A DNA stretch of 64,000 nt, from assembly GCA_964544585.1 (NCBI GenBank), contig CAZJBV010000002.1, positions 131,468-195,467 on the forward strand, read 5' to 3'. The DNA comes from an uncultured Gammaproteobacteria bacterium. GTDB taxonomy: Bacteria > Patescibacteriota > Microgenomatia > 2-02-FULL-39-11. The stretch's first letter is position 1; every line of letters starts with the position of its first letter. This document shows positions 17,947 through 64,000 of the stretch, one piece after another. A program made the position numbers and the translations under genes. The notes under the pieces are model-generated. The model saw nothing but the letters and a program-made list of their open reading frames with translations. It was not told the origin of the DNA and searched no databases.

Positions 17947-19065
17947 ATGAAGCGAAAGTATAGTAATATTCTCGTTCTTAAAAAGCAACAGGCCCACCGC
18001 GATTTTATCATTTTTCTTGTGACGGGATGTCTCTGTCTTTTTGGTCTAGTGATGGTTTTTGAATCATCCAATGTCAATGCCTTCAGAGATTTTGGTGATC
18101 AATATTACTTTGTAAAGGACCAGCTTGCATGGATTGTCCTAGGAACAGTCGGACTGGTATTTACCTCTTTTTATGACTACCATAAATATTATAAATTAGC
18201 TCTACCTCTTCTTATAGGTACGATTGTTCTTCTTGTTTTAGTTTTTATTCCTGGGTTAGGCATTCAGGCCCTGGGAGCTAGACGCTGGCTAGGAATAGGA
18301 AATTATAGCTTGCAGCCGGCAGAATTTGCCAAATTAACCATGGCCATATATTTAGCCGCCTGGTTTGCGCACAAGGAGAAAGGAAGACTTTTAGCTTTTC
18401 TCTTACTCGTAGGTCTAGTCGCAGGACTCGTAATTCTCGAACCAGACCTTGGCACTTCGTTGGTACTTCTATCTAGTGCCTTGGTAATGTACTTTATTTC
18501 TGGTGCTCCACTTTGGCATTTCGTCGCCATATTGCCTCTTGGATTATCAGGTATTCTCTTATTATCTATTACAGCTCCATATAGACTAAAGCGATTGACC
18601 ACTTTCTTAAATCCCAACGAAGATCCTCTCGGAGCATCATATCACATCAGGCAAATTTTAATTGCCTTGGGTTCAGGAGGATTATTTGGTTTAGGTTTCG
18701 GAGCATCCCGACAAAAATATGAATATCTTCCCGAGGCAACCACAGATTCCATTTTTGCCATAATTGGTGAGGAATTTGGTTTCTTGGGTGCTGCCATAAT
18801 TATTCTTCTTTATCTACTTTTACTCACAAGACTAATTAAAATTGTCATCAATGCTCCCGACAGATTTGGCATGTTTCTTGCCAGTGGTTTATTTTCGGTC
18901 ATCGCTACCCAAATTGTCTTAAACTTAGGCAGCATGACTACGGTTTTTCCCTTAACAGGCGTACCCCTTCCCCTGATTTCCTACGGTGGTTCCAACATGA
19001 TTGTAACTCTTACTTCAATTGGCATTCTCCTCAACATCAAAAAACAGGGCGTAACCAAAAAATAA
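17947..19065 (+). CDS. ftsW: SEDS-family peptidoglycan glycosyltransferase FtsW
   Basis: GARRWLGIG...QPAEFAK SEDS motifs. Position between mraY and murG. Confidence 0.8.
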   Translation: MKRKYSNILVLKKQQAHRDFIIFLVTGCLCLFGLVMVFESSNVNAFRDFGDQYYFVKDQLAWIVLGTVGLVFTSFYDYHKYYKLALPLLIGTIVLLVLVFIPGLGIQALGARRWLGIGNYSLQPAEFAKLTMAIYLAAWFAHKEKGRLLAFLLLVGLVAGLVILEPDLGTSLVLLSSALVMYFISGAPLWHFVAILPLGLSGILLLSITAPYRLKRLTTFLNPNEDPLGASYHIRQILIALGSGGLFGLGFGASRQKYEYLPEATTDSIFAIIGEEFGFLGAAIIILLYLLLLTRLIKIVINAPDRFGMFLASGLFSVIATQIVLNLGSMTTVFPLTGVPLPLISYGGSNMIVTLTSIGILLNIKKQGVTKK

Positions 19066-19066
19066 A

Positions 19067-19103
19067 ACACCTCGAAGGTGGCCGAATGGACTCCTTCGAG
19101 GTG
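19067..19103. repeat. Short-form GC-rich palindromic element between ftsW and murG
   Basis: acacctcgaagg-tggccgaatggact-ccttcgaggtg: an 11-bp perfect stem around the same tggccgaatggact loop that appears at 58541-58579. Confidence 0.7.
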
Positions 19104-19115
19104 AAAGAACCAATT

Positions 19116-29854: not shown

Positions 29855-29862
29855 ACTTAAAC

Positions 29863-29914
29863 CACCTCGGATGGTGGCAGTCCGCCATCTAGCGGACATG
29901 ACTCCTCCGAGGTG
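29863..29914. repeat. GC-rich palindromic element at the lepB 5' end
   Basis: cacctcggatggtgg ... ctcctccgaggtg arms (9-bp stem) with a nested ccgcc..gcgg palindrome in the loop. Confidence 0.65.
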
Positions 29915-29986
29915 AAGGAATCAGAACTATGGTAGATCTATAATTTAAGTGTAGTGGTATAATAAAAAACTGTCAAGGAAAAAATA

Positions 29987-30063
29987 GGACGCATAGCTCA
30001 GATGGCTAGAGCGTTGCATTCACATTGCAAAGGTCCCAGGTTCAAGTCCTGGTGCGTCCACCA
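29987..30063 (+). tRNA. tRNA-Val (anticodon CAC), with encoded CCA
   Basis: Hand-folded cloverleaf: acceptor ggacgca/tgcgtcc, D arm gctc..gagc, anticodon loop ttCACat, T arm ccagg-ttcaagt-cctgg, 3' CCA present. Confidence 0.85.
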
Positions 30064-30344: not shown

Positions 30345-30435
30345 CCCCTTCCAAAAAATTTATAAATTAAACTATATTACCCGAAACTAATCAAGTAATC
30401 AATAAGAGAATTGTAAGAGGTTTGTAAGTGACATA

Positions 30436-30477
30436 GACACCTCCGAGGTGTGCGAATGCACTCCTCGGATGGTGGAG
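30436..30477. repeat. GC-rich palindromic element just past the stop of the convergent secreted-protein gene
   Basis: gacacctccgaggtg-tgcgaatgca-ctcctcggatggtgg. Same arms as the large elements, with a short loop. Confidence 0.7.
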
Positions 30478-30480
30478 GCT

Positions 30481-35630: not shown

Positions 35631-36763
35631 CCCTGATTCGCGGACGCTACTTGAATGCATATGAAATGCAAACCTACGAAGAACTTGTGGCATTATATCA
35701 AATCACAGCATTTGGATCACTTACTGCTTTCCATAAAAACTTCATCTTCCCAGTAAAATTACTCCCAAGTCCCATCGATATCATCTCCCTGACTCACAAA
35801 ATAGGCATACCAGACAAATACATCCACGGAATTTTAAATAGATTATTGGTCGATGATCATTATCTTTTTGGCCTCATCGACCAACTCAAAGGATTTGATA
35901 TCGCTCATACTGCCGAAACATATTTTCACTTTACTCACCAATGCCTGAGTGCCAAGAAAAAAGGATATGTAAAAAAGGTAGTAGCCACAGTCTGGGAAAA
36001 TATTCCTTTTAATAACGAAGGCGTAAAAGGCAGAAAAGAGTTCAAATCTCAGGCACAAAAAGAAATAGACCACTTTATAGCCGTTTCCCTCAAAGCAAAG
36101 AAAGCTCTAGTCCAAGAAGGATGTGATGAGAAAAAAATTTCAGTAATACCAGTTGGAATTGACACACACCGCTTCCATCCCAGAAACAAAAATTCAAATA
36201 AAAAATTATGCATTTTATTCTCCGGCAGACTTGAAAGTGAAAAAGGGGTATTTGATGTAATTGATGCTATCGACCACCTTGCCAATCGATATCATTGGAT
36301 CCCAGATAGACTCGAGGCAATATTAGCTGGAAAAGGATCAGAGGAAAAACGTCTAAAAGACATGATTTTAAAAAGAAACATTTCCGACTTTTTTAACATT
36401 AGCCATTATCCTTATAGCCAAATGCCTTCTATATATCAGATAGCGGATATCTTTATCGCGCCAAGCCACAAAACTAAATATTGGCAGGAACAATTTGGGA
36501 TGGTATTTCTAGAGGCAATGGCATCGGGTCTACCTATAATTACTACAGATACAGGAAGTATCAAAGAGGTGACGGGAGATGCCGCAATTTATGTACCAGT
36601 TGGGAGGATAGAAGTGCTTTCTGATATACTTCAATCATTGCTCATAAATAGTCAAAAACGACTCGATTTAGGAAAAAAAGCAAGGGTAAGAGCATTGAAA
36701 TATTTTAATAGAAACTTAATCGCCGGTAAAATAGATAAACTTTATCAACAAGTAAATAAATGA
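35618..36763 (+). CDS. Family 1 (GT4-type) glycosyltransferase
   Basis: EQFGMVFLEAMASGLPIITTDTGS. Confidence 0.75.
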   Translation: MPKIALIRGRYLNAYEMQTYEELVALYQITAFGSLTAFHKNFIFPVKLLPSPIDIISLTHKIGIPDKYIHGILNRLLVDDHYLFGLIDQLKGFDIAHTAETYFHFTHQCLSAKKKGYVKKVVATVWENIPFNNEGVKGRKEFKSQAQKEIDHFIAVSLKAKKALVQEGCDEKKISVIPVGIDTHRFHPRNKNSNKKLCILFSGRLESEKGVFDVIDAIDHLANRYHWIPDRLEAILAGKGSEEKRLKDMILKRNISDFFNISHYPYSQMPSIYQIADIFIAPSHKTKYWQEQFGMVFLEAMASGLPIITTDTGSIKEVTGDAAIYVPVGRIEVLSDILQSLLINSQKRLDLGKKARVRALKYFNRNLIAGKIDKLYQQVNK

Positions 36764-37695
36764 ATAAAATATTTATTATCATACCCACTTATAACGGCTT
36801 GAAAGACACATTTGAATGTCTCAAAACAATTTCTAAACTAAATTATAATAACCAAGAAATAAAAACAGTTATTGTCGATAACGCCTCAACTGACAAAACT
36901 CCTGAATTCCTGGAGAAAGAAAAATCAAAATATAATCTCCGCAAAATCTTCAAAAACAATAAAAATCTCGGCTTTGCCAAAGCCTGCAATATAGGCATAA
37001 AGTATGCCTTAGAAAATAATGCAGACTACATCCTCCTCTTAAATAGCGACGTGGTAATAGATCAAAACTTCCTTCCATCTCTGATAGATTCTGATTTAGA
37101 CATCATCAGCCCCGTAGTACAATTTCCCCTCGATCCTGATGGAAAAGATTATCGCTACGATTATGGTGGATACGTCAATTGGTGGACAGGCCGCACATAT
37201 CACGACGACAGAAAAGTTTTTTCCAAAAGACATCGAGGCACCTCGGACGTAAAGACACCTCCGAGGTGGCCCGCCCGCCTGCCGGCAGGCAGGGAAGGGA
37301 CTCCTCGGACGGTGGAGGGAGCAGGAAAACCGGAATATATTCCCGTTGACTATATGTCCGGCTGCAGTTTACTCATCAAAGCAGAAGTTTTTAGAAAAAT
37401 CGGCCTTTTTGATGAAAAATTTTTTATGTATTTCGAAGACGTCGACTTCTGCGTCAGGGCCAAAAAGGCCGGTTTTAGAGTCGCGGTGGATCCGCAATCC
37501 CTCATATTCCACAAGCTCGGCGGATCGATCAAACGCTGGTCAACAAAGGCAATTTACTATAATATCTCCAGTAATGCCATTTTTATCCTCAAATACTGCG
37601 GCATAAAAACCCCAATTGCTCTGGGATATCTTTCACTTCTCACCGCCAAAATTATAATGGATAAGATTTTATATAAACTAGACGCTAGACGCTGA
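36760..37695 (+). CDS. Family 2 glycosyltransferase carrying a large palindromic-element insertion
   Basis: IIIPTYNGLKDTFECL...VIVDNASTD and the DxD motif. Element at 37238-37318 encodes [27 protein letters not shown] in frame. Confidence 0.75.
   Translation: MNKIFIIIPTYNGLKDTFECLKTISKLNYNNQEIKTVIVDNASTDKTPEFLEKEKSKYNLRKIFKNNKNLGFAKACNIGIKYALENNADYILLLNSDVVIDQNFLPSLIDSDLDIISPVVQFPLDPDGKDYRYDYGGYVNWWTGRTYHDDRKVFSKRHRGTSDVKTPPRWPARLPAGREGTPRTVEGAGKPEYIPVDYMSGCSLLIKAEVFRKIGLFDEKFFMYFEDVDFCVRAKKAGFRVAVDPQSLIFHKLGGSIKRWSTKAIYYNISSNAIFILKYCGIKTPIALGYLSLLTAKIIMDKILYKLDARR
37238..37318. repeat. GC-rich palindromic element, long form
   Basis: cacctcggacg-taaa-gacacctccgaggtgg-cccgcccg-cctgccggcagg-cagggaaggga-ctcctcggacggtgg. 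Confidence 0.85.
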
Positions 37696-37712: not shown

Positions 37713-38462
37713 ATGATTTCCGCTGTAATCCTGACCAATAATTCTGCCAAATATCTTGAGAAATGTTTATCTTCGCTTTCTTTTTGTAGTGAAAAAATAG
37801 TTATTGACGATGAATCTACAGACGACACACTAAAAATCGCCAAAGATTTAGGAGCTATAGTATTTAATAGAAAACTAAATGGTAATTTTGCCGACCAAAG
37901 AAACTTTGGTTTGACAAATGCTACCCCCCCATGGGTACTTTTTATAGACAGCGATGAACTGGTATCAAAGGAATTATCAGAAGAAATCAAGGAGGCCATT
38001 AAATCCAACCAATACAATGGCTATTTCATCCCCCGTCTCGATATTTTTGACGGAAAGATTTTAAAATTCGGAGAAACCGGCAATATAAAACTTCTAAGAC
38101 TAGCAAAAAAGGATGTGGGAAGATGGGAGCGAAAAATCCACGAAACTTGGCACATCAAAGGCCCAATTGGTGAATTAAAAAGCCCAATATTACATTACCC
38201 ACATCCCACAGTCAGAGAATTTCTTTCTGAAATAAATGACTATTCCACCCTCCACGCCCAAGAATTAAGAAAAGAAGGAAAAATGGCAAATGTATTTACC
38301 ATCATTTTCTATCCAACTTTGAAATTTATTCAAAATTATTTTCTCAAATTTGGGTTTCTCGATGGTGTCCCAGGGTTTATATATGCCGCCATGATGAGTT
38401 TTCATTCCTTTCTTTCCCAGACAAAACTATGGCAAATACAAAACCCACAGCCCAAAATATAA
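37713..38462 (+). CDS. Family 2 glycosyltransferase
   Basis: ISAVILTNNSAKYL...VIDDESTDDT and DSDE. Confidence 0.75.
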   Translation: MISAVILTNNSAKYLEKCLSSLSFCSEKIVIDDESTDDTLKIAKDLGAIVFNRKLNGNFADQRNFGLTNATPPWVLFIDSDELVSKELSEEIKEAIKSNQYNGYFIPRLDIFDGKILKFGETGNIKLLRLAKKDVGRWERKIHETWHIKGPIGELKSPILHYPHPTVREFLSEINDYSTLHAQELRKEGKMANVFTIIFYPTLKFIQNYFLKFGFLDGVPGFIYAAMMSFHSFLSQTKLWQIQNPQPKI

Positions 38463-39661
38463 TAATTCTTTATTATTTATTATTAGCTATCCTCATTCTA
38501 TTTCCATTTGGCCAATTGACTCAAATCCCCTTTTTCCCCGGTCCGCGTGTCTATTTACACGACATTCTAGTAGGTTTAGTCTGGGTTTTTTTACTCTTTC
38601 ACTATCAGCAAATCAAAAATATAAGTAAAAATATACTTTTTTTCCCTTCAATATTATTTATATTTATTGCACTTTTATCCCTTATCATTTCTCTTTTATC
38701 AATTCCCGGGCGCGAGGTATTTGTAGGAAGCCTCTATCTTCTTCGCTGGATAGGATATTTGACAGTTGCGCTCGCAACGATTTTAGTTGTCAAAAGAAAA
38801 CCCGAATTCAAACAAAAAATCATTAAAACATTAATTTTTACTGGATCTGCAGCCTCCATTTTTGGCTTGGCCCAATATATCTTTTATCCAGACCTTAGAA
38901 ACCTCTATTATCTCGGATGGGATCCCCATTATCTGCGCGTCTTCGGCACTTTTTTTGACCCAAATTTCTTAGGATTAGTCATAGTCTTAACCATTATCAT
39001 GACGATTACTTCTCTAAATAATTCATGGCTCAAATATTCTCTTTTTTTCCTCAACACCCTCACCCTGGCCCTCACCTATTCCAGAAGTAGTTTTATTGCT
39101 CTTGCAGGATCTCTAATTTCACTTTTTTTCTACCGCAAATTTAATAAAACCATAGTTTTTATATTTATCATAGGACTCGTTACTCTTCTTTTTCTTCCCA
39201 AAGGACCCCAAAGCGAAGGAATCCAATTGGAAAGAATGGCTTCAGTTGAGGGCAGAGTGGAAAGCATCAATAAAGGAATAAGTTTATTTTTCAAGTCTCC
39301 TCTTTTTGGTGTAGGTTTTAATAATTTGAGGTCCTATCAAAAAATTCACCCTCAAGACTTTCGCGGAGATACAATTCCCGAAAATGCGGCCGGAGGTATA
39401 GAAAATAGTTTTATTTTTCTCTTGGCTACCACCGGCATCGCCGGATTTACCGCCTACATGATTTTATTGGTTGGTATGTTTATGGTGGGGGATCGTATCC
39501 TCAAAATCTCTCTTATCGCCATCCTCGTCCACAGTCTCTTTAATAATTCTCTTTTCTATCCCTGGGTAATGCTTTGGATTTGGATTCTAGTTGGAGTAAG
39601 TTCAAAACAAGACGCTAGACCTGCCCGCAATGCTACGCATAGCGTTGCAGGCGGGCGCTAA
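38429..39661 (+). CDS. O-antigen ligase/polymerase-like (Wzy/WaaL-type) polytopic membrane protein
   Basis: About 10 TM helices with a large loop. Placement at the end of the glycosyltransferase cluster. Confidence 0.45.
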   Translation: MANTKPTAQNIIILYYLLLAILILFPFGQLTQIPFFPGPRVYLHDILVGLVWVFLLFHYQQIKNISKNILFFPSILFIFIALLSLIISLLSIPGREVFVGSLYLLRWIGYLTVALATILVVKRKPEFKQKIIKTLIFTGSAASIFGLAQYIFYPDLRNLYYLGWDPHYLRVFGTFFDPNFLGLVIVLTIIMTITSLNNSWLKYSLFFLNTLTLALTYSRSSFIALAGSLISLFFYRKFNKTIVFIFIIGLVTLLFLPKGPQSEGIQLERMASVEGRVESINKGISLFFKSPLFGVGFNNLRSYQKIHPQDFRGDTIPENAAGGIENSFIFLLATTGIAGFTAYMILLVGMFMVGDRILKISLIAILVHSLFNNSLFYPWVMLWIWILVGVSSKQDARPARNATHSVAGGR

Positions 39662-41523: not shown

Positions 41524-41596
41524 AGCCGACAGTCGGTCTCGAACCGACGACCTACGCTTTACGAAAGCGCCGCTCTGCCAACTGAGCTATGTCGGC
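41524..41596 (-). tRNA. tRNA-Thr (anticodon CGT), no encoded CCA
   Basis: Reverse-complement cloverleaf: acceptor gccgaca/tgtcggc, D arm gctc-agttggca-gagc, anticodon loop ttCGTaa, T arm gtcgg-ttcgaga-ccgac. Confidence 0.85.
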
Positions 41597-45433: not shown

Positions 45434-45505
45434 AGCGGGCGATGGGCTTTGCACCCACGACCTTCTCCTTGGGAAGGAGACATTCTACTCCTGAACTACG
45501 CCCGC
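45434..45505 (-). tRNA. tRNA-Gly (anticodon CCC) with an atypical T-loop
   Basis: Reverse complement folds: acceptor gcgggcg/cgcccgc, anticodon loop ttCCCaa, T arm gtggg-tgcaaag-cccat (G at position 55 in place of the conserved U). Confidence 0.55.
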
Positions 45506-46243: not shown

Positions 46244-46318
46244 CGGGGCCGGCGGGACTCGAACCCGTAACCTTCGCCGTGACAGGGCGATGCTCTAACC
46301 AAATTGAGCTACGACCCC
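46244..46318 (-). tRNA. tRNA-Asp (anticodon GTC)
   Basis: Reverse complement folds: acceptor ggggtcg/cggcccc, anticodon loop ctGTCac, T-loop ttcgagt. Confidence 0.8.
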
Positions 46319-46382: not shown

Positions 46383-48170
46383 TTGACAATGACAAATCAC
46401 GAAATAGCCAAACTTCTCCAAAACATTGCCGCCGCCTACACAATTTTAGGCGCCATGCCTGCCGGCAGGCAGGAAAATCGTTTTAAAATCCTAGCCTACG
46501 AAAATGCAGCCAAAGGTGTAGAGTCATCAAATAGAGAAATAGAAGATCTCTGGAAAGAGAAAAAATTATCCGAAGTCGAAGGCATTGGCAGTTCAATTGC
46601 CTCCCATCTAGATGAGCTATTTCGCAAGGGAAAAGTAGCCCATTTTGAGTCCATTATCAAAAGAGTTCCTGAAGCTGTATTTCCACTTCTTGAAATTCCC
46701 GGTTTTGGAGCCAAAAAATCGTATAAATTGGCCAAAGTGCTAAATTTAAAATCGGCAAAAACAGTAATTTCTGATCTCGAAAAAGCTGCCCGTCAGGGAA
46801 AAATAGCCAAAATTGAAGGTTTTGGAGAGAAATCTCAACATGACATTCTAGAATCAATTGCGTTATATAAATCCCTCGGCGGTAGAGAGCGCCGTATGCC
46901 CCTTCCCACAGCCGGAGAACTGGCTAAAAAAATAGTTTCTTATTTAAAAAGATATTCAGAAACACTCGATATTGCTCCGATGGGAAGCCTGCGCCGCATG
47001 AAAGAAACTGTTGGTGATATTGACCTCGCTGTTGCTACCACCAAACCTGACAAAGTAATTCAGGCTTTTTTATCTTTTCCTGGCATTTCCAAAATAGTCG
47101 AAGAGGGAAAAGAGGGAGCTACCATCCTTTTACAAAACGATGAGCATATTGATCTGCGGATTATAGACCCTCAAAGGTGGGGGTCTATGCTCCAATATTT
47201 TACCGGCAGTAAAAACCACAATATTAACCTGCGTGAGTTTGCCCTCAAAAAAAATCTTTCCCTGAACGAATACGGCATAAAAAATCTAAAAACGGGAAAA
47301 ATGAATACATTTAAAACTGAGAAGGATTTTTATAAATTCTTAGGCCTTCCCTGGATTCCGCCTGAAATCCGGGAAGACAGAGGAGAAATAGAGGTAGCCA
47401 TCAACAGTAAATTACCTCACCTGGTAGAACTTGCCGACGTCAGGGGTGATCTTCAGGTACACTCAAATTACCCCATCAAACCTAGCCACGATTTAGGCCG
47501 AGATTCAATGGAGGATATCCTCCATAAAGCAAAAAGCTTAGGTTACGAATATATTGCTTTCACCGAGCACAACCCCAATGTATCAAATTTAAAAGAAAAA
47601 GAAATAATAGAAATTATGAAGCGACGAAAATCAAAAATTGAGCAACTAAAATCGAAAACAAAAAGTGTTCGAATACTCAATCTACTCGAAATAGACATTT
47701 TAGCAAATGGTAAATTGGCTTTACCTGAAAATGCCTTTGCTTATATCGACGCCGGCCTAGCCTCGATCCATTCTAGCTTCAATCAGGACAAAGATGCAAT
47801 GACAAATAGAATCCTCAAAGGATTAAGCCACCCTAAAATAAAAATATATGCCCATCCAACGGCCAGACTCATCAATAAACGCGAGGGTATAAAAGCCGAC
47901 TTCAATGTGATTTTTAACTTTTGCGCCAAACAAAAAAAAGCACTCGAAATAAATTCATATCCTCTCCGTCTTGATCTTCCGGACGATTTGATAATCGATG
48001 CCAAGAAAAAAGGTTGTAAGTTTTCCCTGGGAACGGACGCCCATGATAGTGCCGGGATGTTTCTTATGCCTTATGGCGTGGCCATGGCCAAACGAGGCTG
48101 GCTAACCAAAAATGACATAATAAACACAATGGAGTATAATGAACTTTATTCTTGGCTGACGAGGAGGTGA
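46383..48170 (+). CDS. polX: Family X DNA polymerase with a C-terminal PHP phosphoesterase domain (PolX)
   Basis: HhH / Pol-beta-like N-terminal half ([27 protein letters not shown]) and a PHP domain with His/Asp motifs. The 16-nt core of the palindromic element (cctgccggcaggcagg) at 46458-46473 encodes MPAGRQE. Confidence 0.75.
46458..46473. repeat. Remnant core of a palindromic element inside polX
   Basis: Exact 16-mer cctgccggcaggcagg shared with the long-form elements. Confidence 0.5.
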
Positions 48171-49644: not shown

Positions 49645-51009
49645 ATGAATCAAATCCTCATTCTTCTCGGCAAAATCATTTCTGCCCTCAGTAAAATTAC
49701 CAACCTTGGTAGTGGTAGCACCTGGCCGGGTGAAATAGCGTTAATAACAAATCCAAATATTTTGGCTCATTTTTTTAACAAAGTAAAAAAAGGAATCATT
49801 ATAATCGCCGGCACAAATGGTAAAACCACTACCGCAAAAATGGTTCAAGAAATGATAAGCTCACAGTATCCCATAGACACTATAGTTCACAACGATTCAG
49901 GTGCCAACCTCTTAAACGGCATAACTTCAGCCTTTATAAAAAAGGCCAAAATTATTACGAACAGTTATTTTGACTGGGCAGTCTTGGAAGTCGACGAAAA
50001 TACTCTTCCCATTTTACTTAAATATCACCTCAGCCATAAAGACACCTCGGATGGTGTGCGCATAAAGACACCTCCGAGGTGGCCCGCCCGCCTGCCGGCA
50101 GGCAGGGAAGGGACTCCTCGGATGGTGGAGAAACCAGCAAAGCCCAAAATTGTCATTGCCCTTTTAAATCTTTTTCGCGACCAGCTCGATAGATATGGAG
50201 AGGTAGATACCATTGTCTCAAAATGGTTGTCTGCCCTCAAAAATTATTTGGGAAAAGTCAATCTCATTACCAATGCCGATGATCCCACCATTGCCTACAT
50301 GGGTCTTTCTTGTCAAAAGAATGTCACTTTTTTTGGTATAGACAAGGCAAAAGGCATAAAAGAAATAGAGCATGCTACAGACTCCATCTTTTGCCCGCTA
50401 TGTGGACATAAATTAAGTTATGAGGCCGTCTATTATTCTCATATAGGTAGATGGGCTTGTCCATCATGCAACCTTAATCGTCCTAAAATCCAAACCGCAA
50501 GTATAAAAACCAAATTACCAGGTCTATACAATTTTTATAATACACAATGCGCCGTATTAATTGCTCAAACAATCGGAATAAAAGAATCTAATATAAAGTC
50601 AGCTCTCCAAAATTTTACCCCCGCCTTTGGCCGCCAAGAGGAATTCAGCATCAATGGTAAAAAAATTAAAATCTTCCTCTCCAAAAACCCAGTCGGCTTC
50701 AATGAATCTCTAAAAACTGTCATCGATCTCGGCGCCAGGCAAGTGCTTCTCGTTTTAAACGATAGGATACCCGACGGCCGCGACGTCTCCTGGATTTGGG
50801 ACGTAGACTTTGAAATAATTCCTGAAAACACCCAAATCATAGCTTCAGGAGAAAGATGCTATGACCTTGCCCTCCGCCTCAAATACGCAGGCAAAAAATT
50901 TGAAATAGAAAAAGACTTGAGAAAATCCATCCAGTCAGATTATATTTTGCCTACCTATTCGGCCATGCTCGAAGTTCGAAAAATTTTGACGGGCAAAAAA
51001 ATTCTTTAA
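49645..51009 (+). CDS. murT: Mur-ligase-like lipid II isoglutaminyl synthase subunit MurT, carrying a palindromic-element insertion
   Basis: Mur ligase P-loop IIAGTNGKTTTA, Cys4 ribbon CPLCGH…CPSCN, and a DUF1727-like C-terminus. Element at 50041-50129 encodes [31 protein letters not shown] in frame. Confidence 0.65.
   Translation: MNQILILLGKIISALSKITNLGSGSTWPGEIALITNPNILAHFFNKVKKGIIIIAGTNGKTTTAKMVQEMISSQYPIDTIVHNDSGANLLNGITSAFIKKAKIITNSYFDWAVLEVDENTLPILLKYHLSHKDTSDGVRIKTPPRWPARLPAGREGTPRMVEKPAKPKIVIALLNLFRDQLDRYGEVDTIVSKWLSALKNYLGKVNLITNADDPTIAYMGLSCQKNVTFFGIDKAKGIKEIEHATDSIFCPLCGHKLSYEAVYYSHIGRWACPSCNLNRPKIQTASIKTKLPGLYNFYNTQCAVLIAQTIGIKESNIKSALQNFTPAFGRQEEFSINGKKIKIFLSKNPVGFNESLKTVIDLGARQVLLVLNDRIPDGRDVSWIWDVDFEIIPENTQIIASGERCYDLALRLKYAGKKFEIEKDLRKSIQSDYILPTYSAMLEVRKILTGKKIL
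50041..50129. repeat. GC-rich palindromic element, long form
   Basis: gacacctcggatggtg-tgcgcataaa-gacacctccgaggtgg-cccgcccg-cctgccggcagg-cagggaaggga-ctcctcggatggtgg. Confidence 0.85.
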
Positions 51010-51026
51010 CTACCAAACTACAAACT

Positions 51027-51854
51027 ATGAACTACAAACTAACTATCGGCTGGCTCTATCCTGATTACATGTCGACCTATGGAGATCGTGGTAATATTAT
51101 TTGTCTGACCAAACGATGCCAATGGAGAAAAATTAATGTCGAAATTAAGAAAATAGAATTTGAAACACTCCCACAAGAAATCGATTCTTGCGATTTGATT
51201 ATCGGCGGCGGAGCCCAAGATAGGCAACAGGAATTGGTGGCAAAAGATCTTTTAAAGAAAAAAAATATTTTTAGAATATTATTTAATAGGGGAGTGCCAG
51301 GTCTTTTTGTCTGCGGCTCTCCCCAACTTCTTGGTCACTATTACATGACAGGGGATGGGAAAAAATTGGCAGGCCTAGGAATTTTCGACTATGTTACCAA
51401 GCATTTCGGACATGACAAACCCCGCTGCATCGGCAACACAGTCGCAAAAGTCATCGGCATAAACACCTCGGATGGAAAGACACCTCCGAGGTGGCCCGCC
51501 CGCCTGCCGGCGAGGCAGGAAGGGACTCCTCGGATGGTGGAAGGATCACAAACCATCGTCGGTTTTGAAAATCATGGTGGTAGAACATATTTAGGCTCCA
51601 GCGCAAATCCCTTTGCCAAAGTTTTAGCTGGCTATGGCAATAATGGGGAAGATGGATACGAAGGCGCAATCTACAAAAATGTCATCGCCTGCTACTACCA
51701 CGGCCCCTTTCTTCCCAAAAATCCCCATATTGCAGATTGGCTTCTTACCCGCGCACTTGAAGTCAAATACAAAAAAGTTATACAATTGGGACCTCTCGAT
51801 GATGGACTTGAATGGCAAGCGCATGATTTTATATTAAATAGGGTCAGACCTTAA
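51027..51854 (+). CDS. gatD: CobB/CobQ-type glutamine amidotransferase GatD (lipid II isoglutaminyl synthase glutaminase subunit), carrying a palindromic-element insertion
   Basis: LYPDYMSTYGDRGNI N-terminus characteristic of GatD. Catalytic Cys in FVCGSPQLLGHY. Sits directly downstream of murT. Element at 51463-51542 encodes [27 protein letters not shown]. Confidence 0.65.
   Translation: MNYKLTIGWLYPDYMSTYGDRGNIICLTKRCQWRKINVEIKKIEFETLPQEIDSCDLIIGGGAQDRQQELVAKDLLKKKNIFRILFNRGVPGLFVCGSPQLLGHYYMTGDGKKLAGLGIFDYVTKHFGHDKPRCIGNTVAKVIGINTSDGKTPPRWPARLPARQEGTPRMVEGSQTIVGFENHGGRTYLGSSANPFAKVLAGYGNNGEDGYEGAIYKNVIACYYHGPFLPKNPHIADWLLTRALEVKYKKVIQLGPLDDGLEWQAHDFILNRVRP
51463..51542. repeat. GC-rich palindromic element, long form (core variant cctgccggcgaggcagg)
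   Basis: aacacctcggatgg-aaa-gacacctccgaggtgg-cccgcccg-cctgccggcgaggcagg-aagggactcctcggatggtgg. Confidence 0.85.
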
Positions 51855-55950: not shown

Positions 55951-57357
55951 ATGTTAGTTGATTTATCCATAGAAGAACTCTCAAAAGGGTTGAAAGAAAA
56001 GAAATTTTCCTCGGTAGACATTCTCAAAGAATGTATTGCCAATATAGGCCGTTTGAATCCATCACTAAATGCATTTATTACTCTACGTGATGAAAAAGAC
56101 CTTTTAGCCGAAGCTCGTCAAAAAAATAAGGAACGTACAACGGAAAGTTCTATCCTCCACGGTCTGCCATACGTCATCAAAGATGCATATAACACCTCGG
56201 GTCTTAGAACAACCGCTGCCTCAAATGTCTTAAAAGATTATATTCCTCCCTATAGCGCTACTGTCTACCAAAAACTTCAGGATGCCGGAGCAATTCTTTT
56301 AGGCAAAACCAATATGGACGCCTGGGGACACGGCGCATCATCTGAAAATACTGACTTTGGGCCAGTTAAAAATCCGTGGGATTTATCGCGAGTCGCAGGT
56401 GGCTCAAGTGGAGGAAATGCGGCGGCAATCGCAACTGGCATGGCAGTCTTTGGCATCGGTGAAGATACTGGAGGTTCAATTCGAAATCCATCTGGCTGGT
56501 GTAATATAACGGGTTTGAAAGTAACCTATGGTAGAGTTTCGAGATACGGCTGTATCGCCTACGTCTCATCGTTTGACACCATGGGTCCTATGGCAAAAAC
56601 ATCAGAAGATTGTGCTCATATTTTAAAAGCCATTGCCGGATTCGATCCCTACGATGCCACCAGTTCCAATAAAGGCGTGCCAGACTATGGAAAAATTATC
56701 AGACAAAATTTGAAAAAAATAACCATCGGCATGCCCAAAGAATTTTTTGGCAGGGGAGTGGATCATGAAATTATAGATCTTATTAAAAGTGCAACCATAG
56801 AATTTCATAAAATGGGACACGAAATAAAAGAAATTTCTATGCCCATGCTTGCTTTTGGCGTACCCGTCTATTATCTCATAGGAACAAGCGAGACAAGTAC
56901 GAATTTAGCAAGATACGACGGAATAAGATATGGAAACGGTAGAGACCAATTTACCAAAGAAACCATGCGCCGCATCATGCTCGGAACTTACGCCCTTTCG
57001 GCTGGATATTACGATGCTTATTATAAAAAAGCCCAACAAGGCAGAACTCTTTTTATCAAAGAATATCAACAGGCTCTATCAGAATGCGATGTTATTCTCA
57101 TGCCAGTCGAGCCAATGGCCGCGACAAAAATAGGAGAATTAATCAACAATCCCATTCAAAATATGCTAGCAGATATTTTCACCTGTCAAACGCCTGTTGG
57201 AGTTCCCTCGATTGCTCTCCCTTGCGGTTTTACCAAAGAAAAATTACCAGTCGGCATGCAACTTATAGGCAATATGTTTACAGAAGACTTGCTACTCCAG
57301 CTAGGCTACTCATATCAGGAGCGTACCGATTGGCATAAGATAAAACCAAATCTATGA
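55951..57357 (+). CDS. gatA: Asp/Glu-tRNA(Asn/Gln) amidotransferase subunit A
   Basis: Amidase signature [15 protein letters not shown] with the Ser-cisSer-Lys triad region. The start is moved to the ATG at 55951 just after the gatC stop. Confidence 0.85.
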
Positions 57358-58883
57358 ACAATTACGAACCAATAATTGGTCTTGAAATTCACGTCGAACT
57401 AAAGACCAAATCAAAAATGTTCTGTGGTTGCAGGGCCGATTGGTTTGGTTTGCCCCCAAATTCCAATACTTGCCCTGTTTGTCTAGGTCTACCTGGTGCA
57501 CTTCCGGTTCCCAACAAAAAAGCAGTCGAATGGTGTATCATGCTCGGCCTTGCCCTAAATTGCCAAATCCCCGAAACATCTAAATTTAATCGAAAAAATT
57601 ATTTTTACCCCGATCTTCCCAAAGGTTATCAGATATCACAATACGATCAACCCCTTGCGATAAATGGATGGTTGGAAATAAATAAGCCACAAGACACCTC
57701 GGATGGTGGCGAAGCAACGACTTCGACTCCTCCGAAGGTGCGAAGGGACCGGAAAAGAATAGGCATCACCCGCGTCCACATGGAGGAAGATACAGGCAAA
57801 CTTCTCCATGCCAAAGTCGAGGGTTCAAACGTTTCCTTAGTCGATTTTAATAGAAGCGGCGTCCCTCTCGTCGAAATAGTTACAGAACCTGACATAAGAA
57901 GTAGTGAGGAAGCTCGAACTTTTCTTAAAAAACTCCACCAAATAATTCGCTACTTGGGTATTTCCGACGCCGATATGGAAAAAGGCTCCATGCGCCTCGA
58001 GCCAAATATCTCTCTCCGAAAAAGAACAGGCGACAAAGACACCTCGGACGGTGTCCGCCAGCCGGCGGACTCCTCCGAGGTAAAGACACCTCCGAGGTGG
58101 CCCGCCCGCCTGCCGGCAGGCAGGGAAGGGACTCCTCGGATGGTGGAGGAAGCATTACCAAACTATAAAGTCGAAGTCAAAAATATCAACTCATTTAATT
58201 TTGTTAAAAAAGCAATCGATTTTGAATTAGAGCGCCATACGGATATTTTAGAAAGGGGTGAGTTGCCTATACAAGAAACTCGCGGCTGGGACGAAAAAAA
58301 AGGCATAACATATTCTCAAAGATCAAAAGAAGAAGCCCACGACTACCGCTATTTTCCCGAACCAGATATTCCTCCAATGAGATGGGGAAAAGAGCAAATA
58401 TCAAAAATCAAAGATCAAAAACCCGAACTTCCCGATGCTAAAATAAAAAGATTTATCAAAGATTATAAGTTGTCAGAATACGACGCAACAATTTTGACAG
58501 ACGAAAAATCAACCGCTGACTATTTCGAAAAAGCCTTAAAGACACCTCGGGGGTGGCCGAATGGACTCCCCCGAGGTGGAGAGACCGGAATAAACCCCAA
58601 AACCATCGCCAATTGGATTATAAACAAACGGATTGATACATCAAGGATTTCGCCAGAAGAACTCATCAAATTGATAACAAGTAAAACACAAACTATTCAA
58701 ATAGATGAAAAAGAATTGGAATCAATCATCAAAAGAGTCCTCTCTCAAAACCCCAAAGCCGTCTCCGACTACAAAGCCGGAAAACAACAAGCTATAATGT
58801 TTCTAGTCGGCCAAGTAATGCGAGAAACCAAAGGAAAAACTGATGCGAAAAAGATAAAAACAAAGCTAAAAAATATGATATAA
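57354..58883 (+). CDS. gatB: Asp/Glu-tRNA(Asn/Gln) amidotransferase subunit B, interrupted in frame by three palindromic elements
   Basis: N-terminus [23 protein letters not shown] and the C-terminal YqeY/GatB tail. Insertions at 57693-57740, 58038-58148 and 58541-58579 are all in frame. Confidence 0.85.
57693..57740. repeat. GC-rich palindromic element (short arm-only form with a nested cgaag..cttcg hairpin)
   Basis: gacacctcggatggtgg-cgaagcaacgacttcg-actcctccgaaggtg. Confidence 0.7.
58038..58148. repeat. Composite GC-rich palindromic element: an arm-only unit followed by a full long-form unit
   Basis: gacacctcggacggtg-tccgccagccggcgga-ctcctccgaggt-aaa-gacacctccgaggtgg-cccgcccg-cctgccggcagg-cagggaaggga-ctcctcggatggtgg. 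Confidence 0.85.
58541..58579. repeat. Short-form GC-rich palindromic element; same loop as the 19067 copy but with a co-varied stem
   Basis: gacacctcggggg-tggccgaatggact-cccccgaggtgg. The stem cgaagg/ccttcg in the 19067 copy is cggggg/cccccg here. Confidence 0.75.
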
Positions 58884-58893
58884 TCAGCTTAGT

Positions 58894-59118
58894 ATGAAAA
58901 AACTTCAGAAATTACCAGCAAATTATGATTTTTTCATTAAAACAGACACATCATCTTATAAAGGTGAATGGATTGCAATTACCGGTAAGAAAATTATATA
59001 TCACGGTAAAGATGCTCAAGAAGTCTACAGAAAAGCAAAGCAAAAATATCCAACTGCCAATGTTTCACTCGCCAAAGTTCCCGACGAGCAAATTCTGATA
59101 TTAAGATTCTCCCAATGA
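58894..59118 (+). CDS. Small hypothetical protein (74 aa), probably co-transcribed with the downstream aspartic protease
   Basis: 4-nt overlap with the next ORF. No assignable motif. Confidence 0.4.
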   Translation: MKKLQKLPANYDFFIKTDTSSYKGEWIAITGKKIIYHGKDAQEVYRKAKQKYPTANVSLAKVPDEQILILRFSQ

Positions 59119-59522
59119 TTATTTTCCGCTATAAAGAAGAACCATCTGGCAAGAAAAACGAACTAATCAAAAGACCAATTGCTGATATATATATTAGAAG
59201 CAAATCCGGGCCCTGGATAGAATTTCATCCCTATATAGATTCAGGTGCGGATGTCACTCTTATCCCTCTGACTCTCGGAAACCTTATTGGACTAAAAGTT
59301 GATGAAAAGAAAATTGAACAAATAGGAGGCATTAGAGGTAGTGTTCCTGCCATTTATTCTCAAGAAAAAATACGAATTGGAGACAATATACTCTCAGCTC
59401 GCATCGCTTGGGCCTTAATTGAAGAAGTTCCACCTCTCCTCGGACGCACTGATATCTTTGATAGTTTCCATGTCACTTTCAAACAAAACCAAGGAATAAT
59501 TATTTTCGATGAACGAAAATAA
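59115..59522 (+). CDS. Retropepsin-like (clan AA) single-domain aspartic protease
   Basis: Catalytic motif YIDSGADVTLIP (D-S-G-A) and the flap-like LLGRTDIFDSFHVTF. Confidence 0.6.
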   Translation: MIIFRYKEEPSGKKNELIKRPIADIYIRSKSGPWIEFHPYIDSGADVTLIPLTLGNLIGLKVDEKKIEQIGGIRGSVPAIYSQEKIRIGDNILSARIAWALIEEVPPLLGRTDIFDSFHVTFKQNQGIIIFDERK

Positions 59523-59669
59523 TTACCCAAAGCCATCTCCGACTACAAAGCCGGCAAAGTTAAAGTTATAATGTTTCTAGTCGGTCAGGTAATGAAAGAA
59601 CTCAAAGGGAAAGGAAACGCAGGAGCGATTAAAGAGAAATTATTAAATTACTTATCAAAATATGGATAG
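59523..59669 (+). pseudogene. Orphan duplicate of the gatB 3' end (no start codon)
   Basis: Encodes [32 protein letters not shown]…* . About 85% nt identity with gatB 58752-58836 ([29 protein letters not shown]). Confidence 0.7.
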
Positions 59670-61120: not shown

Positions 61121-64000
61121 ATGTCTGATTTTGTTCATCTTCACTGTCATTCGGAATATTCACTTTTGGACGGACTTTCCAAGATTCCAGACTTACTCGT
61201 CCGCACCAAAGAACTGGGTATGGATTCCCTCGCCCTTACAGATCATGGCGCCATGTATGGCGCCATCGAATTTTATACCAAAGCAGAGGATGCAGGCATA
61301 AAGCCAATTATTGGCATGGAGGCATACCAAGCGGCTCGATCCAGATTTGATAAAGAAGCTGGCCAAGACCGCGATCAGTACCACCTCGTCCTTCTCGCCA
61401 AAAACAAAACCGGCTATCACAATCTTATTAAACTGACAACCCTCTCCCACTTGGAAGGTTTTTATTATAAACCCCGCATCGACATGGATTTATTACGGGA
61501 GTATAAAGACGGACTCATTGCCCTTTCAGGCTGCATGAATGGGTTGATCCCGAGTCTTCTTCGCGATAATCAAATTGATTCCGCCGAAAAAAAAGCCTTA
61601 GAATTCTTGGAAATTTTTGGCAAAGACCATTATTATTTTGAAATCCAAAAGCACTCCAAAATACCAGAACTCGATAAAATCAATGATCAATTAATTACCC
61701 TTTCGCGAAAACTTGGTATTCCCCTCGTTGCTACAAATGATGCTCATTATCTCACCCCGGAAGATGTCGAGGCCCAGGAAATTTTACTTTGTATAGGCAC
61801 ACAAAGAACAATCCTCGAAAAAAATCGACCCCTGTCTATGATCTCATCTCCCGATTTTTATCTTCGTTCGGCAGAAGAGATGAAAGGCCTTTTTTTAAAG
61901 CATCCCGAGGCAATAGAGAATACTAAAAAAATTGCCGAGCTTTGTAATTTGGAAATAGATCTTGGCAACTGGATTCTGCCTCATTTTACCGTTCCGCCTG
62001 ATTTTACCGCCAATACATACCTCAAAAAACTTGCCTTTGATGGGGGTAAGATGCGCTTTGGAAAAATCACCGATGAAATAAAGCAAAGGTTGGATTATGA
62101 ATTGGAAATTATCGCCCATAAAGGCTACTCGACATATTTTTTGGTCGTTGCCGATTTCGTTAACTGGGCCAAGGAAAAAGGCATCGCCGTTGGTCCAGGC
62201 AGAGGTTCAGCAGCCGGAAGCCTGGTTGCTTACTGCATGCGCATTACCGATCTCGATCCTCTATTTCATGAACTTCCCTTTGAAAGATTTTTAAATCCCA
62301 ATCGCCCCTCCCCTCCGGATATTGATTTGGATTTTGCCGACAATCGTCGCGACGAAGTCATTGAGTACGTTACCCATAAATATGGCCAAGACAAAGTAGC
62401 CCAAATAATAACCTTTGGTACCATGGAGGCTCGCCAGGCCGTCCGCGATGTAGGTAGAGCCCTCGGCATGCCCTACGCCCAACCCGACAGAATAGCTAAA
62501 TTGATCCCCATAGGGGCCCAAGGATTCCCCATGACCATAGAAAAGGCTCTCGAGCTATCTCCCGAATTATCTTATGCCTATCAACACGAGGCAGACACAA
62601 AGCGCCTGATTGATCTGGCACGCAAACTCGAGGGGGTCGCTCGCCACGCCTCCGTCCACGCCGCCGGCGTGGTCATCGCCGATAAGCCTCTTACTCAATA
62701 TGTACCCCTGCAAAAAGAAACCAAAGGAGACAGAGTCATTACTCAATACGATATGTATTGTCTCGATCTCAATGCTGCGGGAGGAGGAAAAGCAGTCGGC
62801 CTTCTTAAAATGGATCTATTGGGGCTAAGAAACCTCTCCATTTTGGAAAAGGCTGTCAAATTTGTTAAAGATAGCCGTGGGGTAGAGGTCGATTTTCACA
62901 GCATCCCGCTCGATGAAAAAAAAGCCTACGAAATCATTGCCTCCGGAGAAACGACGGGTATTTTTCAACTAGAATCACCTGGCATGCGTCGACTAGCCAA
63001 AGACCTCAAGCCCACCAAATTTACAGATATCTCGGCCATGGTTGCCCTTTTTCGTCCCGGGCCCATGGATTGGATACCCATTTTTATCGAAGCCAAGCAA
63101 AATCTAAAAAAAATAAAATACCCTCACGAAGCCCTAAAACCGATTCTCTCAGAAACCTATGGTATAGCAGTCTATCAGGAGCAATGTATGCAGATAGCCC
63201 ACGTTATGGCAGGTTATTCCCTCGTTGAAGCAGATAAATTGAGAATGGCCATAGGCAAAAAAAAGCCGGAGGTAATGAAAAAGGAGAAGGAGAAGTTTAT
63301 CTCAGGATGTATCAAGCAAGGATACTCAAAAAGTGTAGCCGAAAACGTCTTTTCACTTATAGAAAAATTTGCCGGCTACGGCTTCAACAAAGCCCACAGT
63401 GCCTCTTACGGCATGATTGCTTATCAGACCGCATATATGAAGGCCAAATATCCCATAGAATTTATGTGCGCAGTTTTGGCAGCCGAATCTCATGGATCGG
63501 GTCCAGCCCGAGATGAGAAAGTCGCCCAAGCCGTCATGGAGTGCAAAAGAAATAATATCCCTCTCCTTCCGCCCGACATAAACAATTCGGATAGCGATTT
63601 TACTATCGAAAACCTGCCTGCCCGTCCGGCAGGCGGGCCTGCCGGCAGGCAAGGAGAAAAAATTCGCTTCGGCCTCTCAGCCGTCAAAAACGTAGGCACA
63701 GCCGCAATCGACTCTATTCTTTCCGCCCGCATAAAAGGAGGACTTTTTGTTTCTTTAACCGATTTTATCTCCCGCGTCGATCTCCAAAAGGTAAATAAAA
63801 AAACTCTTGAAAGCCTCATCAAAGCAGGGTGTCTTGATAGATTTGGCAAAAGGGCAAGTTTACTTGCCGCCATACCCCAGTTTGTTGAAATTGCCCACAA
63901 AAGACAAAAAGAATACGAATCAGGCCAGGCAAGCCTCTTTTCCGATGAAGAAACTTCGACCGTTATCGATGTATTGCCCGAACTGGACGAATTTTCCCAA
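61121..64000 (+). CDS. dnaE: DNA polymerase III alpha subunit, 5' part; runs off the window end. Carries a palindromic-element-derived insertion
   Basis: PHP domain start MSDFVHLHCHSEYSLLDG and polymerase core motifs (GPGRGSAAGSLVAYC, PDIDLDF). Hand translation found no stop through position 64000. Element at 63603-63650 encodes NLPARPAGGPAGRQGE. Confidence 0.85.
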   Translation, partial: MSDFVHLHCHSEYSLLDGLSKIPDLLVRTKELGMDSLALTDHGAMYGAIEFYTKAEDAGIKPIIGMEAYQAARSRFDKEAGQDRDQYHLVLLAKNKTGYHNLIKLTTLSHLEGFYYKPRIDMDLLREYKDGLIALSGCMNGLIPSLLRDNQIDSAEKKALEFLEIFGKDHYYFEIQKHSKIPELDKINDQLITLSRKLGIPLVATNDAHYLTPEDVEAQEILLCIGTQRTILEKNRPLSMISSPDFYLRSAEEMKGLFLKHPEAIENTKKIAELCNLEIDLGNWILPHFTVPPDFTANTYLKKLAFDGGKMRFGKITDEIKQRLDYELEIIAHKGYSTYFLVVADFVNWAKEKGIAVGPGRGSAAGSLVAYCMRITDLDPLFHELPFERFLNPNRPSPPDIDLDFADNRRDEVIEYVTHKYGQDKVAQIITFGTMEARQAVRDVGRALGMPYAQPDRIAKLIPIGAQGFPMTIEKALELSPELSYAYQHEADTKRLIDLARKLEGVARHASVHAAGVVIADKPLTQYVPLQKETKGDRVITQYDMYCLDLNAAGGGKAVGLLKMDLLGLRNLSILEKAVKFVKDSRGVEVDFHSIPLDEKKAYEIIASGETTGIFQLESPGMRRLAKDLKPTKFTDISAMVALFRPGPMDWIPIFIEAKQNLKKIKYPHEALKPILSETYGIAVYQEQCMQIAHVMAGYSLVEADKLRMAIGKKKPEVMKKEKEKFISGCIKQGYSKSVAENVFSLIEKFAGYGFNKAHSASYGMIAYQTAYMKAKYPIEFMCAVLAAESHGSGPARDEKVAQAVMECKRNNIPLLPPDINNSDSDFTIENLPARPAGGPAGRQGEKIRFGLSAVKNVGTAAIDSILSARIKGGLFVSLTDFISRVDLQKVNKKTLESLIKAGCLDRFGKRASLLAAIPQFVEIAHKRQKEYESGQASLFSDEETSTVIDVLPELDEFSQ
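63603..63650. repeat. Degenerate GC-rich palindromic element (two adjacent core palindromes) inside dnaE
   Basis: cctgcctgcccgtccggcaggcgggcctgccggcagg. Contains the exact cctgccggcagg core. Confidence 0.6.

Follow-up and report, generated by a model that had tools for sequence, protein, structure and literature searches.

How can the gene of a normally essential enzyme carry several hairpin-forming DNA inserts and still be read as one open reading frame (ORF)? This question is raised by gatB in a 64-kb stretch of contig CAZJBV010000002.1 (hereafter the window, meaning the whole 64,000 nucleotides that were analysed). The initial annotation described the gene as a single ORF despite three independent element insertions, and considered either that the inserts are tolerated in surface loops or that a mechanism removes them. 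The frame indeed runs uninterrupted through 509 amino acids, the three segments lie where they had been placed (57693-57740, 58038-58148 and 58541-58579; 48, 111 and 39 nt), and the quoted peptides agree with the translation of ORF 57354-58883. The GC contents of the segments (0.60, 0.71 and 0.72, respectively) compare with 0.392 in both the remainder of gatB and the window overall. All three lengths are multiples of 3, and 13 to 37 amino acids are encoded. We propose that the inserts belong to a dispersed, non-autonomous family of hairpin repeats in a subclade of Candidatus Gottesmanbacteria, and that they would be translated and tolerated in permissive loops of the host proteins; we give this reading a probability of about 0.75.

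The host gene was identified as gatB by both Pfam domains of its product (GatB_N, E=6e-111; GatB_Yqey, E=5e-18), by homology to solved structures, the top one being that of T. maritima (3al0_B, E=3e-124), and by gene order, the GatC and GatA genes lying directly upstream (gatC-gatA-gatB). Every residue that is invariant in a family alignment of 92 sequences is kept. The gene is under strong purifying selection: amino acid identity to relatives is 70-82% and silent sites are saturated, third-codon positions at identical residues being only 39-51% identical. The closest homologues are named Candidatus Gottesmanbacteria (Microgenomates, in the Candidate Phyla Radiation, CPR), the best being 73% identical, and the exact protein is also recorded in the metagenome-assembled genome GCA_016186845.1. 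No second gatB was found in the window, which holds only a 3' fragment of one. Inserts excluded, this clade's GatB falls about 40 residues short of the solved GatBs (about 438 against 466-483 amino acids); the region of residues ~398-440 (58545-58673), between the helical and tail regions, has about 42 residues where T. maritima GatB has about 69.

Each insert is built from the same kind of hairpin unit. Two conserved and mutually complementary boxes, CCTCGGATGGTG and CCTCCGAGGTG, occur in either order and pair as an 11-bp stem (5' box pattern, AAAGACACCTC[C/G]GA..GGTG; 3' box pattern, GACTCCTC[G/C]GA..GGTGGAG). The interior between the boxes is freely variable in sequence and always self-complementary. 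Short conserved flanks adjoin them (TAA immediately before AGAC on one side, GAATCAGAAA immediately after GGAG on the other), and the unit reaches about 8-10 nt past the boxes (G-N-N-N-T-A-A upstream, GAATCAGAAA downstream). Units measure 40-70 nt and are GC-rich within an AT-rich genome. One continuous hairpin was predicted for all 56 of the 56 parsed variants despite interiors unrelated in sequence, and 29 of 57 variants have no stop codon in any of the six frames, compared with 6% of shuffles. Compensatory changes were seen in the stems, both at gatB site 1 among relatives and in the window unit at 19063-19110. No Rfam family was matched, either at gathering thresholds or at E<=1 over gatB.

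Folding of the gatB units gave values from -22 to -40 kcal/mol, with z from -3.4 to -6.3 (insert 1, -22.2 kcal/mol, z=-3.4; insert 2a, -32.5 kcal/mol, z=-6.3; insert 2b, -39.5 kcal/mol; insert 3, -28.1 kcal/mol, z=-4.6). The count of three elements in the initial annotation holds for the sites; site 2 consists of two tandem hairpin units, together -72.5 kcal/mol, so gatB carries four units. At the 3' ends of units, just past the stem, lies an unpaired GGAGG(A) tail (58140-58150 and most units), which resembles a Shine-Dalgarno sequence, while CACCTCC in the boxes resembles the 3' end of 16S rRNA; this is perhaps a coincidence, because no start codon follows at a suitable distance downstream.

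The boxes are far more frequent in the window than expected by chance. With one mismatch allowed, GACACCTCGG has 21 matches against 1.2 expected, and a stricter box pattern has 20 matches on the plus strand (five palindromic overlaps on the minus strand) against about 0.2 in both-strand shuffles. Eleven units were found at nine sites, six of which are inside genes (Table 1). The inserts had been taken for independent copies of a repeat element, a claim that these counts and the copies elsewhere in the window bear out. Four long copies, in the GT2 glycosyltransferase, MurT, GatD and GatB (site 2b), agree fully or almost fully over 65 nt, the GatB copy being identical to that of MurT and near-identical to the other two. 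They share one orientation and one codon phase, and encode the same 22-residue peptide in four unrelated enzymes. All four directly follow a partial older unit, whereas only 9 of the 90 copies of the whole set (window copies included) have another box within 80 nt. Self-targeting of units onto older units is a possible, not an established, cause. The intergenic variant at 30433-30480 recurs on three metagenome contigs, which gives four copies with that of the window.

Table 1. Hairpin units of the window, their host gene gatB, and the positions of the gatB inserts in the predicted GatB model (nucleotide positions refer to the window; pLDDT, predicted local distance difference test)
Feature	Position	Strand	pLDDT	Description
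gatB	57354..58883	+		uninterrupted 509-aa ORF hosting four hairpin units at three sites
Insert 1	57690..57745	+		one box-inner-box unit, 3' arm slightly degraded; 19 encoded residues
Insert 2a	58035..58081	+		complete short unit (CCTCGGACGG-inner-CTCCTCCGAGG), DTS frame
Insert 2b	58082..58150	+		long unit, interior with nested palindrome GCCTGCCGGCAGGC, TPP frame; 22 encoded residues
Insert 3	58538..58582	+		short unit, perfect 11-bp stem (CACCTCGGGGG/CCCCCGAGGTG); 15 encoded residues
Insert 1 in model	residues ~111-130		61-72	predicted coil between strands E102-110 and E133-145
Insert 2 in model	residues 229-259		<50	predicted coil between strands E213-223 and E273-276
Insert 3 in model	residues 405-409		<50	predicted loop between helices H385-396 and H415-423
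Family copy, partial then long unit	37237..37320	+		in-frame in GT2 glycosyltransferase, ORF 36760-37695
Family copy, partial then long unit	50038..50131	+		in-frame in MurT, ORF 49645-51009
Family copy, partial then long unit	51460..51545	+		in-frame in peptidoglycan amidotransferase GatD, ORF 51027-51854
Intergenic copy	30433..30480	+		inner hairpin TGCGAATGCA; -27.1 kcal/mol, z=-5.4
Family copy	29860..29925	+		at or before 5' end of minus-strand ORF 29291-29899, beside a tRNA gene
Intergenic copy	19063..19110	+		between ORFs 17947-19065 and ~19116-20249; compensatory G-C to A-T stem change

In a syntenic relative (locus L096), 21 kb are free of boxes, and the genes from MurT to those of the ATP synthase follow the same order. 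The MurT, GatD and GatB of this relative lack precisely the segments that bear the elements: the MurT copy corresponds to a gap of 32 amino acids, the GatD copy to one of 27, and the insert-free GatB ortholog (P0013; 438 amino acids, 77% identical) has gaps of 26, 39 and 9 amino acids exactly at the inserts. The MurT and GatD copies are also gaps relative to the structures PDB 7q8e and 5n9m, respectively, and a remnant was found at the equivalent GatD position in another relative, L004. Alignments of GatB to solved structures break or gap at inserts 1 and 2, and are gapped or poor at insert 3.

Assembly or binning artefacts, such as chimeric joins at repeats, might mimic inserted segments. The source is a metagenome-assembled genome, and the only public record with the exact GatB is a 14.6-kb contig. 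However, the same elements are present at the same gatB codons in independent NCBI, ENA and JGI assemblies, all in frame, and the family occurs on 87 further contigs. The chance that the inserts are artefacts, the finding by which the initial annotation would have been overturned, is therefore negligible in our judgement. The window might also have been a concatenation of contigs, as a public contig starts at 52112; we rejected this, since an ORF runs across this position and the gene order matches that of L096.

Outside the window, the family was traced with a two-ended pattern requiring both boxes and an interior of 10-40 nt. Four copies in the window fit this pattern (0 expected), and it was found on 87 metagenome contigs, in 57 sequence variants and two box orders; it revealed no copy in viral contigs. 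In a species-level genome scan with a 22-nt core, over representatives that do not include the source genome, the sole match lay in a high-GC actinobacterium and was judged to be due to chance. At least 42 of the 90 copies are well inside ORFs. Hosts verified by Pfam include LeuRS, a P-type ATPase, a Cdc48-like AAA ATPase, MnmA, NAD(P)H-hydrate dehydratase and a Wzt ABC transporter. Identical variants turn up in genes unrelated to each other, whatever the strand, and all three phases are represented. For example, a 51-nt variant that sits in sense orientation at gatB site 1 also occurs antisense in GT4 glycosyltransferases of one family and in a large membrane protein, and a WecG-type transferase has the interior of this variant with reversed box order. 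The sense orientation is favoured overall (61 of 82 copies) and so is the sense 'DTS' frame (36 of 53), orthologous copies being included in both counts.

A longer, 143-nt form of the repeat consists of the hairpin between partly complementary AT-rich arms (TAAATTGGACT/AGTCCAATTTA; TATAGAACTCACATTTGTAAATTGGACTTAA-[hairpin]-GAATCAGAAAAACGATAGTCCAATTTATGGATGTTATGTGTATA). It was matched at 13 or more intergenic sites, some possibly one site resampled, in a single lake-metagenome group (loci L014, L020, L035, L038, L040, L043, L077 and L079 among others). These copies have unrelated outer flanks, as is usual after recent transposition. The 143-nt form starts and ends with TATA, and a TA target duplication is possible. 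Flanking direct repeats were no commoner than in a shuffled control, the true ends of the units being uncertain.

Are the units translated, or removed before or during translation? The set examined was limited to non-redundant copies flanked, on one strand, by 60 or more open codons to either side. The frame is kept in 42 of 46 such coding-flanked copies, against about 15 expected (p=3e-16), and more than 25 distinct host families contribute to this count. The four exceptions lie at gene ends or junctions, as where the 3' end of a HisH-like ORF is followed by a HisF-like ORF. Frame preservation and the depletion of stop codons both point to units that are most likely read through and translated rather than removed.

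A removal mechanism, the second option of the initial annotation, could excise the unit from the RNA and religate the ends, or let the ribosome bypass it, as happens with the 'byp' elements or in phage T4 gene 60. It would relieve an essential gene of hairpins so stable (down to -72.5 kcal/mol at site 2) that they seem costly to translate, and bypassed palindromic inserts have a mitochondrial precedent (PMC6649704). However, neither the frame preservation nor the lack of stop codons would be needed if the units were skipped or excised, and gatB has neither a stop codon nor a frame break after any putative take-off site. Rfam detected no intron family in gatB, and in size the units fall far short of self-splicing introns or inteins. 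We consider removal very unlikely.

The gatB inserts would then have to be accommodated by the folded protein. An AlphaFold2 model of GatB, computed with 92 homologues, has a mean pLDDT of 84.8 and a predicted TM-score (pTM) of 0.82. Confidence drops only at the inserts (Table 1), at short conserved loops around residues 90-92 and 320-340 and, mildly, at about 41-50. Compared with all solved GatB chains, the model gives a Foldseek probability of 1.0 and TM-scores, normalised by target length, of 0.68-0.85. Tolerance of the inserts in flexible loops between secondary-structure elements fits these predictions, in line with the surface loops first suggested: the inserts are gaps relative to solved structures and low-pLDDT coils in the model.

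Such loops might instead be adaptive, that is, lineage-specific segments selected for the function of their peptide, for instance in transamidosome contacts, with the repeat nature being incidental. The 16-residue peptide of site 1 is conserved in several relatives, and the over-representation of the sense 'DTS' frame could be read in the same way. Yet the same DNA at the same GatB site is read in other frames in other species and gives unrelated peptides, while the same peptide is found in unrelated enzymes. Moreover, conservation reaches silent positions, the loops are predicted to be disordered, and relatives do without inserts. Selection for the peptides is accordingly a highly improbable explanation.

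A local insertion preference had also been suspected from the three hits in gatB, with the motif gacacctcgg preceding several copies as its possible target. The preference is borne out, the target is not, since gacacctcgg is the 5' box of the element itself. The gene holds three of the nine sites in 64 kb (Poisson p=0.0014). GatB length varies from 429 to 558 amino acids across the 120 best homologues, and three hypervariable positions of the alignment coincide with the three inserts; 55, 36 and 19 of 121 sequences have at least six extra residues there. Four-residue words derived from the boxes were counted 7, 14 and 6 times at the three sites, compared with 5 in the other 51,650 aligned residues of the 121 GatBs. 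In the closest relatives the same family occupies the same sites, often in other frames (DTSDG/DTSEV, TPPRW, HLGGG, DSSDGGG), and different frames at the same site give different peptides. The gatB gene is thus a genuine hot spot, with the same three loops occupied in relatives.

More distant Microgenomates GatBs (P0004-P0120) carry unrelated repeat-like peptides in the same loops, such as VIARSKATKQSIEIATLTPFARNDN, IATSPSAPRNDN, LRDPSTSVGMTG and SRNLSQMR. In one of them, P0006 (L097 6001-7578), three unrelated inserts are GC-enriched and contain small hairpins with a folding signal that is only moderate. In-frame palindromic inserts may therefore be general in the superphylum.

The history of individual sites is more complex than a single insertion. 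The gatB site-1 unit is identical between L003 and L004 (48 of 48 nt), and that of L005 and L006 differs by exactly one compensatory pair (CGAAG..CTTCG to CGAGG..CCTCG). This conservation ends sharply at the borders of the unit. Site 1 is empty in L007, and in L095 it has the same boxes with an entirely different interior. At site 3, a derived stem variant is common to the window and L006, whose units there differ in interior and frame. Rather than one ancient insertion, these patterns suggest that fixed permissive loops were re-colonised repeatedly, or underwent cassette replacement or gene conversion, or that units spread recently between lineages. Vertical descent under purifying selection was considered as the source of the near-identity at site 1, and is weakened by the different interior in L095 and by identical variants in other genes.

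Several observations weigh against a family of dispersed and tolerated repeats. Five genomes with gatB silent sites only 39-51% identical share 46-48 of the 48 nt of the site-1 unit, and because of this near-identity amid saturated silent sites a simple selfish-and-decaying picture does not fit. The strand and frame statistics include orthologous copies, so that independent events are fewer than the counts. We found no closely related filled and empty pair by which exact unit ends and target duplications could be fixed. Finally, no transposase or other mobilising gene was identified, and the fetched loci contained no longer element with the same ends.

The strong conservation could be accounted for if the hairpins were selected nucleic-acid signals (sites bound by a conserved protein such as a recombinase, a nucleoid protein or an uptake factor, or mRNA structures that pace translation or stabilise transcripts) and the peptide a by-product. 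Genomes with saturated silent sites still share near-identical boxes and even loops, stems stay paired through compensatory changes, and the interiors vary yet always pair. All 11 window units lie on one strand, sense copies prevail in the whole set (61 of 82), and each unit ends with the unpaired GGAGG(A) tail. On the other hand, the units are dispensable, as the close relative of the same gene order (L096) has none, and orthologous sites are empty (site 1 of L007) or have another interior (L095). Identical variants in unrelated genes and the multi-copy 143-nt form look like transposition, no Rfam family was matched, and about one site per 7 kb is a low density for an uptake or Chi-like signal. 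We regard selected signals as an unlikely explanation of the family, while co-option of some hairpins as DNA or mRNA signals is a possibility. A DNA-uptake or Chi-like signal in particular was judged unlikely, as the units are inserted segments of low density and a close relative has none.

Another way to explain the conservation would be in-frame 'homing': the boxes would be recognition sites of an active hairpin-specific machinery that re-targets occupied loops, swapping or nesting their interiors. This would account for near-identical boxes across diverged Gottesmanbacteria, for varied interiors at the three GatB loops and for long copies abutting partial units. We hold it to be doubtful.

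A repeat family that is dispersed, translated and tolerated could have reached its present distribution as follows. Units land, or are copied, into many genes, and selection would remove every insertion that breaks the frame or the folded core; the survivors in an essential enzyme would be in-frame copies in a few permissive loops. In GatB these would be a beta-hairpin turn, a loop of the catalytic domain and, before the C-terminal YqeY-type domain, the loop that joins H385-396 to H415-423. The catalytic-domain loop, site 2, lies in what we take to be the cradle domain as named in published GatCAB structures. A unit would be transcribed with its host gene and translated as a disordered surface peptide whose sequence is set only by the frame, and the interior of a resident unit could be replaced or extended by nested insertion. 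The same three loops may have been colonised repeatedly because permissive sites are so few in compact genomes. The mover would be an activity that recognises hairpins or single strands, or recombination between copies, more than classical cut-and-paste transposition, because of the hairpin design, the lack of detectable target-site duplications and the orientation of all window units on the same strand.

Nesting is also suggested by a second palindrome, GCCTGCCGGCAGGC, present at six loci of the window against 0.04 expected. It occurs alone at 33968-34025, 46450-46475 and 63602-63662, and nested in long units at 37277, 50090 and 58108. The solo copies are in-frame in a GT2 glycosyltransferase, a PolX/PHP polymerase and dnaE, where they encode LPAGR/PAGRQ peptides. 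Solo and nested copies together suggest that modules insert into each other's loops. A metagenome variant starting with AGACACCTCGGATGGTGTGCGAAGCCGAGTCTGACTCGGCGAATGCAC (L062 8049-8111) resembles the common TGCGAATGCA interior with a second mini-hairpin, GCCGAGTCTGACTCGGC, placed in the loop and a GAA repeated to either side of it; this may be the trace of nested insertion with a 3-nt duplication.

Among known systems, the closest behavioural analogue is the Rickettsia palindromic elements (RPE; Ogata et al. 2000, 2002), which are inserted in-frame in many housekeeping genes and are compatible with function (PMC10969869, PMC6649704). Both are palindromic repeats found in-frame in unrelated housekeeping genes of a small-genome bacterium, with intergenic copies as well. 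The window family likewise forms long hairpins and, in the predicted model, lies at positions compatible with the fold. RPEs are read through as extra segments compatible with the fold, as the frame data make probable for the present units. Differences are that RPEs are alphaproteobacterial and about 100-150 bp long, whereas the present family, apparently unrelated to them in sequence, is found in Candidatus Gottesmanbacteria in units of about 40-70 nt, is GC-rich in an AT-rich genome, and is modular, with constant boxes and interchangeable interiors. RPE copies are also reported to lose their repeat identity over time (PMC6649704), whereas the boxes of the window family stay near-identical and the same loops are re-used with different interiors.

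REP sequences and REPINs are extragenic, carry a GTAG or CGTC tag, are recognised as hairpins and are mobilised by RAYT transposases (PMC3733652). They lack target-site duplications; for the window family, flanking repeats did not exceed the shuffled control. The window family shares with them short GC-rich imperfect palindromes in many copies; it is mostly intragenic, however, and GTAG or CGTC occurs only three times, at either end, across the 90 copies. Miniature inverted-repeat transposable elements of bacteria (MITEs), such as ERIC, Correia and BOX, are 100-400 bp long, mostly intergenic and usually gene-disrupting when intragenic; classical MITEs have target-site duplications and a recognisable parent insertion sequence (PMC10969869). 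Our family resembles them in being short, non-coding, non-autonomous and multi-copy with unrelated flanks, and in its inverted-repeat ends, namely the complementary boxes and, in one lineage, the AT-rich inverted arms of the 143-nt form.

Hairpin-forming sequences are also found inside essential protein-coding genes of other systems: ribosomes skip the 'byp' elements in mitochondria of Magnusiomyces capitatus, and the coding palindromes of Nematomorpha encode conserved regions in both arms (PMC6649704). The window units, by contrast, keep the frame, are stop-free and add non-conserved loop residues, which separates them from bypass elements of the byp and T4 gene 60 type; inserts that encode only 13-37 amino acids and match no Rfam intron family likewise differ from introns and inteins. 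The GC clusters of yeast mitochondrial DNA are short, GC-rich, palindromic and mobile-looking in an AT-rich genome, and occasionally in-frame (VAR1). They are organellar, mostly intergenic and unrelated in sequence to the window family, and we know of no bacterial counterpart of them described in housekeeping enzymes. A limited literature search found no earlier description of palindromic, MITE- or RPE-type coding repeats for CPR, Patescibacteria, Microgenomates or Gottesmanbacteria; coding hairpin repeats have apparently not yet been described in CPR.

If confirmed, these results would extend Rickettsia-type selfish DNA inside protein-coding genes to CPR, a large group with tiny gene-dense genomes. 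The repeats would explain part of the length variation of CPR housekeeping proteins (GatB, 429-558 amino acids), and would provide a natural map of insertion-tolerant loops in essential enzymes such as GatB, MurT, GatD and LeuRS. Box conservation beyond silent-site saturation, with interior turnover at fixed sites, could lead to a new mobilisation mechanism. For annotation, GC-rich in-frame segments, and start codons within them, may be repeat-derived and could mislead gene callers. The mechanical starts of ORFs 19086-20249 and 29291-29899 (minus strand, start at 29899) fall inside repeat units. The ATG at 19086 is the GAATGG loop of a unit, and the true starts of these ORFs probably lie further in, for example at the ATG at 19116.

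All 11 window units are on the plus strand, as are most genes of the window. Every 4-kb block of the window has a negative GC skew, and the AT skew is mostly positive; PMC7143001 reports an unusual strand composition disparity for another Microgenomates genome.

The surroundings of gatB vary between relatives. In the window, a 4-nt overlap (ATGA, 57354-57357) joins gatA to gatB, with no synthetase gene between them. An AspRS-type gene separates the two in two relatives (L004 6327-7682; L005 1426-2796), a placement that fits the Asp-tRNA(Asn) transamidation route. The region directly 3' of the window gatB (58894-59669) opens with a two-gene cassette, consisting of a DUF5678 protein gene (58894-59118) and a 135-amino-acid ORF without Pfam match (59115-59522). 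It is followed by a copy of the last ~130 nt of gatB (59526-59669), called as a 44-amino-acid 'GatB_Yqey' ORF; this duplicate has a mean column identity of about 80% (MAFFT), falling toward the 3' end. Because a GGDEF gene directly follows gatB in three relatives (L003, L004 and L095), the cassette looks like an insertion into the 3' end of gatB that brought or duplicated a replacement end.

Rfam placed tRNA genes at 29987-30060, 41524-41596, 45434-45505 and 46244-46318, the first of which sits between the repeat units 29860-29925 and 30433-30480. Lastly, a GC-rich hairpin outside the box family, GACCTGCCCGCAATGCTACGCATAGCGTTGCAGGCGGGCGCT, at 39618-39659, forms the last 14 codons of a Wzy-like ORF (38429-39661).

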